DNA of 64,000 bases from an uncultured Clostridiaceae bacterium (GCA_930990125.1 CAKNOI010000003.1:972-64971), one strand, 5' to 3'. Positions 60,288 to 64,000 are shown, counted from the stretch's first letter. Numbers and translations: made by a program. The notes: generated by a model not told the origin, from the sequence alone.

Positions 60288-61490
60288 ATGAAAAAACTAC
60301 TTACCAGTATGCTAATAATTATGGTTTTATTTCAGACCGTACTATCTCCAAAAACTATTTTTGCTGCAGAAGTAGCAGAGGATACTGCTACAGATACAGT
60401 ATCAGAAGAAGCACCATATACCCAGGAAGATATTGATAAATTGTTACACAATGGAACAGGAAACAAGGGAGATAAAGAGGATGTTACCATTGATAGAGAT
60501 TTGGGGGATGGACAAAGCATTTATGATATGAACTCTAATACAACAAAAAGTATTTTTACTATGTTATTTGGAGTATTAAATATGATTCCATTAACCATAA
60601 GTACTATTCTTTCACTAGCAGTAACAGATTTTGTTGTCCCAGATAAACAAGTACCTAATTTTCTAACAATAGAGGATTTAGTATTTGGCAAAATTTCCAT
60701 GTTAGATATTAATTTTTTAAGTAATCAGAATATGGGAACTACACAAAATGGAGTAGAAATTAATGCTCAAATTAAAGAGCAGGTAGCTATATGGTATTAT
60801 GCTGTAAGAAATATTGCCATTGTTTTATCTTTAATTGTTCTACTATATGTAGGGATTCGAATGGCAATTTCAACCGTGGCTGCTGAAAGAGCTAAATATA
60901 AAGAAATGTTAAAAAATTGGCTTATTTCCTTTGTGTTACTATTTACACTACAATATATTATATCTGCTATATTTTTGTTTTACTCTCTATGTATTCAAGT
61001 AACTTCACATTTGTATAGCAATGAAGCAGGATTTGAACAAGAAATTATTAATAATGTAATGCTAGATTTAGATAAAGAAGTGGGAATAGATGTAGTTTTA
61101 TCTTCTATTACTTACTGGATATTAGTCTTTTACCAAGTACGATTTTTACTAATATATGTAAAAAGATTTATTGTAACAGGATTTTTAATAGCAATTGCAC
61201 CAGCAATTACGGTAACTTATACCATAGATAAAATGGCAGATAAAAGAGCACAAGCATTTGAAACATGGAAAAGAGAGTTAATTATTAACATTCTAATTCA
61301 GCCATTACATATTTTAATATATACTGTATTCCTTGTGGCTGCAGGAGCAATAGTAGAAACAGCACCAATACTATCCATACTTTTCTTTACATCTTTATCA
61401 AGAGTAGAGAAAATTGTAAAGGGAGTATTTAGAATGAGAGGAGCTAAATCAATTCATTCTATGTCAGAAACACTAAGATTAAAAAAATAG
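60288..61490 (+). CDS. VirB6/TrbL-like polytopic T4SS channel protein (paralog A, with an N-terminal secreted domain)
   Basis: Signal peptide, ~170-aa external domain, then 6-7 TMs starting IWYYAVRNIAIVLSLIVLLYVGIRMAIST. Confidence 0.65.
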   Translation: MKKLLTSMLIIMVLFQTVLSPKTIFAAEVAEDTATDTVSEEAPYTQEDIDKLLHNGTGNKGDKEDVTIDRDLGDGQSIYDMNSNTTKSIFTMLFGVLNMIPLTISTILSLAVTDFVVPDKQVPNFLTIEDLVFGKISMLDINFLSNQNMGTTQNGVEINAQIKEQVAIWYYAVRNIAIVLSLIVLLYVGIRMAISTVAAERAKYKEMLKNWLISFVLLFTLQYIISAIFLFYSLCIQVTSHLYSNEAGFEQEIINNVMLDLDKEVGIDVVLSSITYWILVFYQVRFLLIYVKRFIVTGFLIAIAPAITVTYTIDKMADKRAQAFETWKRELIINILIQPLHILIYTVFLVAAGAIVETAPILSILFFTSLSRVEKIVKGVFRMRGAKSIHSMSETLRLKK

Positions 61491-61509
61491 TAAAGAAAGG
61501 ATGGTAATA

Positions 61510-62715
61510 ATGAGCAAAAAGAAAAAAATTCTAATTGGTATATTGGTTTTGTTGATTATCGTGTTACTTATCTATCTTACCATCCGTTATTTACAAGGAC
61601 TTACCTATGATCCAGAAAAGCCATACCAAACAATAAAAGAAGCGGTAGAAGCCTTAGGACATACTTACCTAAAAGAAGAAACATCTACGGAAGAAAGATT
61701 TTCCGAAGATATTTACCTAAATTTTTCGGTGGACTTATACACAGAAGAAAACAGTAATGAAAAAATATATAATGACCTTATTTATACAATTGCAAGAGTA
61801 GAAAAATACAAAAGTTTTCGCTTAATAGACCCAGAAAAAGAAACAGTAATTGCAGTACTTGCCAATGAACAAGAAAAAAAGTTAGTTAGAATTTATATTA
61901 ACGGAGACGATAACTACTTTGGAAGACATAGGTCTATGGAAACGATAGAAGAATATACAGAAACACCGGTTACAGACTTTATCATAGAATCGCCTATTCT
62001 TCAAGATAGTATAAGAACAAATTGGAGTACCAATATTTATCTAGGAACCGAAGATGAAAAAAGAGAAGATTATAGAATTTATTCAGATGAGGGGCTAGAA
62101 GTAAAAAAAGTAGATAATAAATTATTTAACATTGTTTTTACACAAAATTATAACAACACCATAGTAAATGGCATAAAAGTAGGAGAAACAATAGATGCTA
62201 TTATTCCTATACTAGGAACTCCAACCTTTGGAAGCAAACAGGAAGGCTTAATAGGATACAAAGGAGAACAATTCTATATTTTCTTTATGGAAAAAGAAAT
62301 TTCTGTTTATCCAGTACTTAAAAATTATGACACAACAGAATTTGTGCAATTAGTTACAACTTATACGGAAGAAGGAAATGCAAGCGATTTTGTAAAAAAA
62401 ATAACAGGCTTATGGAGTGATTATGATCTTTATGAACATGACACAAACTATGTAAAATTACGATATACCTTAAAAGGAGTAGAAATACAATTTAATATTA
62501 CTCCAAACCATGGTATTACCTATTACCAAAATTATCAAGGAGAAATAAAAGAAGGAATTAATTTTAGTAATCTAAAGGAAAAAGAAGGAGAACTATCCAA
62601 TTATATTTATTTTCAGCTAGATACAAACTTAGTATATAAAACAGAACAAGAAAGATTTCATGCATTTCTTTTAAGAGAAAAGGCAAAAGAAACATTAAAT
62701 CCATATGATGAGTAA
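61510..62715 (+). CDS. Bitopic T4SS protein (TcpC/VirB8-like topology: N-terminal TM + ~370-aa external domain)
   Basis: RBS AAAGGA 8 nt before ATG 61510; single TM. Confidence 0.5.
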   Translation: MSKKKKILIGILVLLIIVLLIYLTIRYLQGLTYDPEKPYQTIKEAVEALGHTYLKEETSTEERFSEDIYLNFSVDLYTEENSNEKIYNDLIYTIARVEKYKSFRLIDPEKETVIAVLANEQEKKLVRIYINGDDNYFGRHRSMETIEEYTETPVTDFIIESPILQDSIRTNWSTNIYLGTEDEKREDYRIYSDEGLEVKKVDNKLFNIVFTQNYNNTIVNGIKVGETIDAIIPILGTPTFGSKQEGLIGYKGEQFYIFFMEKEISVYPVLKNYDTTEFVQLVTTYTEEGNASDFVKKITGLWSDYDLYEHDTNYVKLRYTLKGVEIQFNITPNHGITYYQNYQGEIKEGINFSNLKEKEGELSNYIYFQLDTNLVYKTEQERFHAFLLREKAKETLNPYDE

Positions 62716-62749
62716 AAATAAGAAGTAGATAAGAAAGGAGGGAAAAACA

Positions 62750-64000
62750 ATGAAATATGGTATAAAAAAGAAAATACTAGCTATCGTATTACTTATTTTA
62801 TTGTTTTTCCCTACGATAGAATATGCAGCAGAAGAACCTACTACAATCAGTTCTAAAGAAGCTGGTCAAAAGGTAGCCAATTTTGCTATTAGTTTTGTTA
62901 CTAATCATGCTAGTGAGTGTGTATATGATGTTAGTGATGCAGCATATAACCACTGTTTAAAGAAAAATGCACAAGGAAAAGTATATAAAAGAGTAGCAAA
63001 AGATACTAACAACAATGGTGTCATTGATGAAAATGAAATGTTTGTACCAATGGATTATACCGGTGAATTAGTTTATAGTGCCAGATATAACAATAAATAT
63101 CCATTTGATTGTACCGGATTTGTTAGCTTTTTATATAACCAAGCTTTAGGTATTTTATCTGCTAGCAACATGGTAACAACCAATGCAGGCAATACCGGTG
63201 GTGGTTATTTTGAAATTTTAGATGCTAGTGTAGAATTACAACCAGGAGATATTTTAAGAAAACCATTAAATAGTAGTGGAACAGGAGGACATGTTAGTTT
63301 ATATGTAGGACTAGGAGGAGGAAAAGATATTGTAGAAGCTGCTAGTGTAAGCAGTGGAATTCGTTTTAGTTCTTTGCCACAATATACACAAGTATTACGT
63401 CTAAAAGATGGAACAGAATACGAAGAAGGAACAGGAGGTCTTGGGGAAACCCTTCCAGAAGATGAAGAAGTAGCAGGCTCTGATATAACCTTAGAAGGTG
63501 GTGTAAACCAATATATAGACCCATATGATCCGAGTGTATCTATTCCAGATCCAGATTCCTTTGAATTTCCAGGTTTAGCAGAAGAAAATTTTGTAGGAAT
63601 GGGAGATAGAATAGAAGATTTAAAAAAGGGATTAGAAGCAATAGTAGATTTTCTATCCGATGCCTTTACATGGATTGTAGGAATTATTTTATATCCCATT
63701 AAAATGGTATTAATAGGTTGGATACAGATAGCCCAAAATGCGATTACTTCTATTTTTTCTGCAGCAACCGGCACCGAAATTACAGAAATTAATATTGAAG
63801 ATATCATCTTTAATAAAATACAATTACTAGATGTTAATGTGTTTACCAATACTCCAGGAGGAATGGCAATATCAAGTGGAAGCGTAGTAGGAATTATTCA
63901 TGAAGGAATTAGAATTTGGTATTATACTTTCAGAAATGTTGGAATCGCTGGAATGTTAATAACATTGCTATATTTAGGAATACGTATGGCACTAAGTACT
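62750..64000 (+). CDS. Partial (runs off the window): NlpC/P60 (CHAP-like) cell-wall hydrolase domain fused to a second VirB6-like TM domain (paralog B)
   Basis: Catalytic Cys in FDCTGFVSFLY and His in GGHVSLYVG; C-terminal IWYYTFRNVGIAGMLITLLYLGIRMALST paralogous to the 60288 protein; not in the ORF track because no stop falls in the window. Confidence 0.7.
   Translation, partial: MKYGIKKKILAIVLLILLFFPTIEYAAEEPTTISSKEAGQKVANFAISFVTNHASECVYDVSDAAYNHCLKKNAQGKVYKRVAKDTNNNGVIDENEMFVPMDYTGELVYSARYNNKYPFDCTGFVSFLYNQALGILSASNMVTTNAGNTGGGYFEILDASVELQPGDILRKPLNSSGTGGHVSLYVGLGGGKDIVEAASVSSGIRFSSLPQYTQVLRLKDGTEYEEGTGGLGETLPEDEEVAGSDITLEGGVNQYIDPYDPSVSIPDPDSFEFPGLAEENFVGMGDRIEDLKKGLEAIVDFLSDAFTWIVGIILYPIKMVLIGWIQIAQNAITSIFSAATGTEITEINIEDIIFNKIQLLDVNVFTNTPGGMAISSGSVVGIIHEGIRIWYYTFRNVGIAGMLITLLYLGIRMALST

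Follow-up and report, generated by a model that had tools for sequence, protein, structure and literature searches.

In the genome of an uncultured Clostridiaceae bacterium, a type IV secretion system (T4SS) gene cluster encodes B6b, a protein in which an NlpC/P60 domain is covalently fused to a VirB6-like body. The window analysed here is the whole stretch of 64,000 nucleotides (nt) (GCA_930990125.1 CAKNOI010000003.1:972-64971; G+C content 30.9%), and the B6b open reading frame (ORF), which starts at 62750, runs off its 3' end at 64000. B6b is probably a VirB6-type platform subunit of a T4SS/pilus machine of a monoderm bacterium, carrying on a flexible tether a hydrolase that would cut the peptides of the producer's own wall. 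VirB6 proteins and VirB1-like hydrolases are each known kinds, and it is their fusion that is apparently new. The parts of B6b within the window are as follows, with residues given in amino acids (aa).

62750..64000, + strand: B6b, first 417 codons of the 1085-aa NlpC/P60-VirB6 fusion
62750..62827, + strand: predicted Sec signal peptide, aa 1-26, ...IEYA/AEE; hydrophobic segment at aa 2-28, cleavage site read by eye
63032..63394, + strand: NlpC/P60 (C40) endopeptidase domain, aa ~95-215; Pfam NLPC_P60 at aa 115-209
63110-63112, 63290-63292 and 63335-63337, + strand: Cys121, His181 and Glu196, respectively
63425..63643, + strand: acidic Pro/Gly-rich linker, aa 226-298, predicted to be disordered; AlphaFold2 (AF2) predicted local distance difference test (pLDDT) score <50 throughout
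63608..63769, + strand: two hydrophobic helices before the conserved motif, aa 287-340, from hydropathy and the AF2 model (helices H287-313 and H315-340)
63788..64000, + strand: start of the VirB6-like body, aa 347-417, with the IEDIIFNKIQLLDVNVF motif and the first pilin-like helix

The full-length sequence of B6b was reached via public assemblies that carry the complete neighbouring 404-aa protein, p404. Contig L001 differs from the window by 1 mismatch in 12,500 nt, and on this contig the B6b ORF runs on without a stop to 1085 aa. A stop codon or frameshift between the hydrolase and the transmembrane (TM) domain was looked for in the full-length ORF, and none is present on six independent metagenome contigs, all six of which carry the intact 1085-aa ORF with 1-12 amino-acid differences. 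Orthologs with 55-73% identity are 1071-1099 aa long and keep the full architecture, which in B6b consists of an N-terminal signal segment, the NlpC/P60 domain, a linker of ~70 aa, the VirB6-type body and a long C-terminal extension. These results bear out the covalent fusion of a hydrolase with a VirB6-like protein that the sequence-only reading had described from the truncated ORF.

The Cys/His-containing N-terminal domain, already described as of the NlpC/P60 type in that reading, can be assigned to the NlpC/P60 (C40) family with conserved catalytic residues. The Pfam NLPC_P60 score is 22.2 bits for the window sequence and 20.5 bits for the full-length protein against a gathering score of 23, and the relatives P0016, P0024 and P0026 exceed this gathering score with 25.7-33.6 bits. 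A profile of a 20-member family matches NlpC/P60 endopeptidases in the PDB at E=6e-10 to 1e-4, the best match being Acd24020 of C. difficile (7cfl, E=6e-10), followed by Spr, MepS, CwlO and LytE. The closest solved relatives of the head are thus generic DL-endopeptidases and not T4SS hydrolases, and the Tn916-type conjugative hydrolases (9ubf and 4hpe) are matched more weakly. The catalytic Cys (DCTGF, Cys121) is kept in 111 of 116 aligned domains of related proteins and the catalytic His (GHVSLY, His181) in 118 of 124, and both residues are invariant in the 20-member alignment. The third catalytic position, Glu196 in B6b, is occupied by His in 40, Glu in 33 and Asp in 15 of the aligned domains. 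The domain has a papain-like alpha+beta fold. Some relatives carry two NlpC/P60 copies, and the second copy of P0065 is degenerate and has lost the Cys. The head of B6b would be expected to have peptidase activity.

In the unfused relatives P0001-P0003, the conserved IEDIIFN..LDINFF motif directly follows the signal peptide. Because of this arrangement, the motif of B6b and everything N-terminal to it, the enzyme included, should lie outside the membrane, so that the head would face the outside of the cell. Consistently, the N-terminal segment of B6b is hydrophobic, as expected for export.

The body of B6b is of the VirB6 type by its modelled fold. TrwI is the top match of the confident model among 48,164 chains, covering 223 of 261 residues, and DotA, the other solved VirB6-type protein, ranks 6th in the same search. 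The body is polytopic with at least five hydrophobic helices, and the gene order PrgI, TraC-like, VirB4 and B6a in the window places a polytopic protein beside VirB3 and VirB4. Curated VirB6, TrbL and PrgH-type families in Pfam and NCBIfam give no above-threshold match for B6a or B6b, and there is no Pfam TrbL match. B6a shows sub-threshold NCBIfam matches to MMCAP2_0566 (24.6 bits, cut-off 90) and Mbov_0396 (20.8 bits, cut-off 70), which are membrane-protein families of Mycoplasma integrative and conjugative elements, and B6b has no such match. The sequence-only reading had called these proteins VirB6-like channels. The VirB6 part of this description holds by fold, but VirB6 is now seen as a pentameric pilus platform and not as a simple channel (PMC12857230).

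The paralog of B6b in the window is B6a.

60288..61490, + strand: B6a, VirB6-like paralog 1, 400 aa; signal peptide and helical body, no enzyme domain
60663..60875, + strand: B6a segment matched to the ORF at 62750, aa 126-196; IEDxxF..LDINF motif and first pilin-like helix

The proposed paralogy of the ORFs at 60288 and 62750, both of which are present, is confirmed by a BLASTP alignment with 45% identity over 71 aa without gaps (E=2e-16), which falls precisely on the stretch that the sequence-only reading had cited, and alignment of the two full-length proteins extends it to the whole helical body, with 33% identity over 273 aa (E=2e-43). The earlier description of these proteins as duplicated is right as to paralogy and short in number, as a third paralog, B6c, lies beyond the window. 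B6c is a 689-aa protein encoded at L001:14491-16560 (about 65241-67310 in window numbering), and its ORF overlaps that of the fusion, beginning 17 nt ahead of the fusion's stop. B6c carries the same motifs as its siblings (IDDILFN..DINFF / LGIRMAISTV) and shares 37% identity with B6b over 312 aa (E=1e-54) and 34% with B6a over 302 aa. The two hydrophobic helices preceding the motif in B6b are also conserved in B6a and B6c. The three paralogs are ancient and form three conserved orthogroups, with one of each per species locus.

In every VirB6 paralog, the first helical hairpin resembles a pilin; it lies at 60750-60980 of the window in B6a (aa ~155-230) and at 63875-64000 in B6b (aa ~376-417). 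Residues 161-227 of B6a match Pfam T4SS_pilin with 27.9 bits against a gathering score of 26.6. A hidden Markov model (HMM) built on 229 pilin ORFs of the species loci described below matches 230 of 244 VirB6-paralog ORFs with a median of 21.6 bits, and the reversed-sequence control gives 6 matches with a maximum of 8.3 bits. The shared loop motif reads GIRMA(I/L)ST.PE.KAKYK in the VirB6 paralogs and A(V/I)(K/R)Y..A.PE.KADIK in the pilins. Direct BLASTP of the pilins against B6a is not significant, and the relation is visible with profiles only. A pilin-like hairpin in each paralog suggests a way for VirB6 to template pilus growth.

When 1.84 billion cluster representatives are searched exhaustively by HMMER, the 417-aa fragment of B6b matches 548 clusters at E<=1e-3. 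In 138 of 181 retrieved motif-bearing proteins, the motif begins at least 200 aa into the protein. Among 149 N-terminal extensions of representatives clustered at 50% identity, ~120 hold NlpC/P60 domains, some with two copies, ten hold an α/β-hydrolase and two an M23 peptidase. These extensions were sorted by seeded HMMs; single-linkage BLAST merged all of them into one cluster because the helices preceding the motif are shared. Since NlpC/P60 is found in ~120 of the 149 extensions, the hydrolase-VirB6 fusion is a family trait and not a one-off.

The cluster to which B6b belongs is a tight same-strand gene array that occupies the + strand from 55130 to the end of the window in the order of three pilins, PrgI/VirB3-like, TraC-like, VirB4, B6a, p404 and B6b. 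The genes other than B6a and B6b are as follows.

55130..55513, + strand: pil1, VirB2-like pilin, 127 aa; Pfam T4SS_pilin 41.1 bits, TrbC 32.9 bits
55547..55951, + strand: pil2, VirB2-like pilin, 134 aa; Pfam T4SS_pilin 31.6 bits, TrbC 27.1 bits
56186..56734, + strand: pil3, VirB2-like pilin, 182 aa; Pfam T4SS_pilin 38.9 bits; 174 aa in public gene calls, which place the start at 56210
56751..57089, + strand: small membrane protein of the PrgI/VirB3 type, 112 aa; Pfam PrgI 26.1 bits (gathering score 27); position conserved in ~70 species loci
57093..58277, + strand: TraC-like protein, 394 aa, like the N-terminal part of VirB4; Pfam PF26593, NCBIfam VirB4_plasma profile positions 99-220
58284..60251, + strand: VirB4-type ATPase, 655 aa; NCBIfam conju_CD1110 E=1e-62 and VirB4_plasma E=1.5e-58; Pfam P-loop_TraG, AAA_10 and DUF87
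61501..62715, + strand: p404, conserved bitopic protein, 404 aa, with one N-terminal TM segment, between B6a and B6b; no family match in Pfam or NCBIfam profile searches

VirB4 is split (57093-60251) into the 394-aa TraC-like protein, which has an N-terminal TM segment and matches the N-terminal part of VirB4 profiles only, and the 655-aa ATPase. The ORFs of B6a and B6b are each preceded by a strong ribosome-binding site of the AAAGGAGG type.

A scan of one genome per GTDB species gives 273 confirmed loci, and the best 80 of them all come from metagenome-assembled genomes (MAGs) of uncultured Clostridia. Among these are Clostridium sp. CAG:571 and CAG:793 as well as Ca. Merdicola faecigallinarum, the last of which is assigned to TANB77/CAG-508 (PMC13106387). 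The 13 matched genes (pil1-3, PrgI, TraC-like, VirB4, B6a, p404, B6b, B6c, p965, p190 and p314) recur in nearly all 80 loci, and the core order VirB4 > B6a > p404 > B6b > B6c > p965 is intact in 57 of them. A 14th gene of ~396 aa with no family match follows p314 in the loci examined. In nine of ten gene maps, the cluster stands directly after the same M16 peptidase gene, and the B6b proteins of these maps are only 25-55% identical. The downstream context was taken from three species loci, where the cluster is followed by housekeeping genes for a CAP/SH3 protein, an S11 D-Ala-D-Ala carboxypeptidase and a ZIP transporter, and ClpB is also among the flanking ORFs. No coupling protein, relaxase or integrase is found among the cluster genes or the flanking ORFs of the three species loci. 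The only Walker-A-like string in a cluster protein other than VirB4 is a single one in the low-complexity N-terminal region of p965, which has no ATPase family match. A tblastn search of 72,556 plasmids with B6a and the full fusion gives no match. Because it is chromosomal and conserved across species and has no coupling protein or relaxase nearby, the cluster is not a conjugation module of the TcpH/ConG type.

Compared with the window (51217-64000), locus L008 has 96% identical VirB4, 91% identical PrgI and 87% identical TraC-like proteins, and its B6b, B6c and pilins are 55%, 57% and 53-60% identical, respectively, with the flanking housekeeping M16 peptidase at 82%. Conservation of the cytoplasmic motor exceeds that of a housekeeping gene, and the exported parts evolve fast. 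Among the same-species contigs L002-L006, the pilins pil1, pil2 and pil3 are 78-80%, 89-99% and 94-99% identical to those of the window, and most other cluster and flanking genes are 98-100% identical between same-species contigs, with dips to 96% in Lgt and PrgI. This hypervariability of the pilins suggests diversifying selection or recombination acting on a surface-exposed pilus. In some related species, the number of pilin genes is 4-7.

The 55 kb upstream of the cluster are ordinary chromosome with PcrA-, RadC-, MreB/C-, PBP2- and NrdD-like genes, ABC transporters, two-component systems, M16 peptidases and Lgt. Between 26362 and 35190 lie two paralogous two-component modules, with response regulators at 26362 and 33270 that are 34% identical and histidine kinases at 27069 and 33952, and with several paralogous ABC-transporter ATPases close by. 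This region is ordinary chromosomal content outside the T4SS finding.

Enzyme domains are concentrated at the B6b position, being present in none of 71 B6a orthologs and 2 of 91 B6c orthologs. The 82 ORFs at the B6b position in the species loci carry NlpC/P60 alone (52), an α/β-hydrolase (5), M23 together with NlpC/P60 (2) or nothing recognisable (23). Ten of the B6b ORFs without a recognised domain were scanned; four are short-extended, with the pilin-like hairpin at aa 176-246, and one has a partial NlpC/P60 match. The α/β-hydrolase heads, matched as Abhydrolase_1, Hydrolase_4, BD-FAE or PETase-like, occur at the B6b position in L035, L038, L048, L050 and L070 and in P0023, P0028-P0032, P0034 and P0035. 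A Peptidase_M23 domain is located at aa 60-151 of P0027. In 4-6 species MAGs, B6b is a separate ORF and the NlpC/P60 domain is encoded by a short ORF just upstream (L040:9370-9788, L045:9244-9761 and similar), which may be either natural fission of the fusion or the result of assembly frameshift errors.

The protein p965 (L001:16582-19479) is membrane-anchored through a TM segment at aa ~218-264 and has a C-terminal glucosaminidase domain (Pfam 32.3 bits), and by these features it fits the classical type of Gram-positive VirB1-like hydrolase. The placement of NlpC/P60 was tallied over the 67 loci that have both B6b and p965, in counts that ignore phylogeny.

NlpC/P60 on B6b only: 37 loci, plus 4 with the domain on a small ORF directly upstream of B6b
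NlpC/P60 on p965 only: 6 loci, in which B6b has no recognised enzyme domain
NlpC/P60 on both B6b and p965: 2 loci, plus 2 with the domain on the upstream ORF and p965
No recognised domain on either protein: 10 loci, in which some p965 ORFs are cut by the locus end

This distribution looks like one NlpC/P60 module shuffled between the hydrolase subunit p965 and the VirB6 subunit B6b. It is chiefly because of this shuffling that a VirB1-type role on the producer's own wall is favoured for the head.

The most likely mechanism is as follows. Because VirB6 proteins would oligomerise at the centre of the machine, the fusion would set several peptidase heads at the place where the pilus or channel crosses the thick wall. 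There the heads would cut peptide cross-links of the producer's own peptidoglycan, and the separate membrane-anchored glucosaminidase p965 would cut glycan strands. The tether to the platform would confine wall opening to the assembly site, so that the fusion may couple wall opening to channel assembly, as the sequence-only reading had proposed. B6b and p965 would thus share between them a pair of activities that in PrgK, TcpG and CwlT are united on a single VirB1-like protein. In agreement with such a mechanism, the nearest plasmid relative of the cluster has adjacent but separate genes for a VirB6-like protein and a papain-like hydrolase.

Several observations weigh against an own-wall peptidase on the VirB6 platform. 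Heads of the α/β-hydrolase type occur in five species and an M23 peptidase together with NlpC/P60 in 1-2, and an esterase- or lipase-like head is not an obvious peptidase for the producer's own wall. In the 10 loci mentioned above, neither B6b nor p965 carries a recognised enzyme domain, with some p965 ORFs being truncated, and the complementary distribution of the domain between B6b and p965 is not corrected for phylogeny. The N-terminal domain has low confidence in the AF2 model of B6b. Furthermore, the cluster has no coupling protein or relaxase.

A different target is conceivable for the head, namely the envelope of a partner or target cell. B6b would then carry interchangeable warheads (NlpC/P60, M23 or α/β-hydrolase) that a contact-dependent T4SS pilus machine displays or sets free at its tip or base, and by means of this machine a host with a reduced genome attaches to, feeds on or kills its neighbours. 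This is unlikely, yet it is the alternative that survives best. NlpC/P60, M23 and α/β-hydrolase are enzyme classes typical of antibacterial effectors, and the swapping of heads of these three classes at an orthologous position agrees with such a role. So do the chromosomal location of the cluster in ~80 species without a relaxase or coupling protein nearby, the hypervariability of the pilins between strains and the disordered linker of ~70 aa, which by estimate would span ~25 nm if fully extended. The gene repertoire is also the same as that of the Patescibacteria T4SS needed for epibiotic growth (PMC12102498). However, the head sits at the N-terminus behind a Sec signal peptide, and a covalent link with no evident release site holds it to a polytopic membrane protein, and the gene maps show no immunity-like small gene adjoining B6b. 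The alternation of NlpC/P60 with the VirB1-like p965 points to a housekeeping role for the machine, and Gram-positive VirB1-like hydrolases also combine several hydrolase types (PMC12857230).

If the NlpC/P60 domain were non-catalytic, it could bind peptidoglycan or have a regulatory role, and so position the VirB6 platform within the wall or stabilise it there. There is a precedent in PrgK, whose LytM and CHAP domains appear to be regulatory and not catalytic, as summarised in PMC12857230 from Sun et al. 2024, and the single-sequence Pfam score just under threshold and the degenerate second copy in relatives such as P0065 would fit this role. Conservation of the Cys and His in nearly all aligned domains, with mostly His, Glu or Asp at the third position, is unexpected for a purely structural module and makes this improbable. 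Even less probable is that the helical body is not a functional VirB6 equivalent but a lineage-specific polytopic protein built on a pilin-like hairpin, such as a pilin-processing or pilus-base protein, with generic helical packing accounting for its likeness to TrwI. The leading positions of TrwI and DotA in the structure search, the canonical gene position after VirB3 and VirB4, and a homologous protein in the same position on a C. botulinum plasmid (E=1e-8) speak for a true VirB6 equivalent. An assembly or annotation artefact or a stop-loss pseudogene, to which the existence of split or frameshifted versions in 4-6 species MAGs might point, is rejected as having a negligible probability, since the ORF is intact and identical in length in six independent assemblies, the orthologs keep the architecture and ~120 cluster representatives share the fusion.

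The closest known kin of the VirB6-type body of B6b is the VirB6 family, with TrwI of R388 (PDB 7o3v and 8rt9), DotA of Dot/Icm, PrgH of pCF10 and TraL of pIP501, together with the extended Gram-positive VirB6 equivalents TcpH (pCW3), ConG (ICEBs1) and Orf15 (Tn916). Extended VirB6 proteins with hydrophilic C-terminal domains are already known. The cluster described here differs in having three paralogs in one operon, one of which carries an exported N-terminal enzyme, a feature that none of the described members has (PMC12857230, PMC4027160 and PMC5770547), and also in that no curated profile scores above threshold and the first hairpin is detectably pilin-like. The VirB1-like hydrolases PrgK, TraG (pIP501), TcpG, CwlT, Orf14 (Tn916) and CstB1 likewise have an NlpC/P60 or CHAP peptidase that is encoded within a T4SS operon, membrane-tethered and exported, and their peptidase is likewise accompanied by a glycan-cleaving activity, which in the present cluster is the glucosaminidase of p965. 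Their anchor, however, is the single N-terminal TM helix of a dedicated protein, whereas the anchor here is the VirB6 platform, and here the peptidase and glycosidase are on different polypeptides. A dedicated single-TM hydrolase polypeptide thus describes p965 and not B6b, in which NlpC/P60 stands on a VirB6-like protein.

The nearest plasmid-borne VirB4, with 41% identity, is that of the C. botulinum plasmid p12/29 (NZ_KT897275). Its genes stand in the same order, namely pilin-like, PrgI-like, TraC-like, VirB4 and a VirB6-like gene (864 aa, E=1e-8 to B6a), and after these comes a papain-like hydrolase. This plasmid has one VirB6-like gene without an enzyme head, and its hydrolase, a 'C39 family peptidase' of 678 aa, is separate and has its own N-terminal TM helix. 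The p12/29 system is plasmid-borne, whereas the present cluster is chromosomally fixed. The T4SS of Patescibacteria, as described in PMC12102498, has the same parts, namely VirB4, a TrsD/TraC-like protein, PrgI/VirB3, VirB6 and several VirB2-like pilins, and the split VirB4 of the window resembles the TrsD and VirB4 pairing of pGO1-type and Patescibacteria systems (PMC12102498). Both are chromosomal and lineage-wide without an adjoining relaxase, in uncultured or host-dependent organisms with reduced genomes. The host here is a Clostridia lineage, unlike in the Patescibacteria system, for which PMC12102498 reports neither three VirB6 paralogs nor an enzyme-VirB6 fusion.

The statement of the sequence-only reading that hydrolase and VirB6 are separate in described systems agrees with PMC4027160, PMC12857230, PMC5770547 and plasmid p12/29. 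Neither the fusion nor three VirB6 paralogs per operon are found in a 2014 T4SS survey (PMC4027160), a 2025 nomenclature review (PMC12857230), PMC5770547 on the C. sordellii cst system or a 2025 preprint on Gram-positive VirB2-like pili. No description of a VirB1-VirB6 fusion was found in the literature, in a search whose coverage leaves out most subscription journals, so that this absence is not proof. Both the fusion arrangement and the relaxase-less, chromosomally fixed T4SS cluster of uncultured gut Clostridia are apparently undescribed. A paper on a conserved pilin of TANB77 (PMC11680825) was considered as a description of this cluster and rejected, as it concerns a Tad-type pilus locus and does not mention a T4SS.

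Two current questions are by what route the T4SS of a monoderm passes its thick wall and what keeps the cutting of the wall to the place where the machine stands, and it is debated whether VirB1-like hydrolases, VirB8-like proteins or the newly recognised VirB2-like pili provide the conduit (bioRxiv 10.64898/2025.12.18.695078; PMC12857230). A covalent VirB1-VirB6 fusion that occurs in nature provides genetic evidence for a peptidase acting right beside the VirB6 platform, and it is also a defined construct for testing such action. It is possible, though less likely than not, that the cluster is a lineage-defining, vertically inherited T4SS/pilus machine of TANB77-type reduced-genome gut Clostridia, withdrawn from conjugation as in Patescibacteria and used for attachment to, uptake from or attack on neighbours. 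The three VirB6 proteins would then form a composite platform with pilin-mimicking first hairpins, and B6b would be a chassis for interchangeable heads that breach a wall, possibly that of the partner. The clade with the cluster includes at least one member of TANB77, an uncultured group that is prevalent in the human gut and has been linked to the response to immunotherapy (PMC11680825). The cluster would be the second case, after Patescibacteria, of a monoderm T4SS kept for a use other than conjugation.

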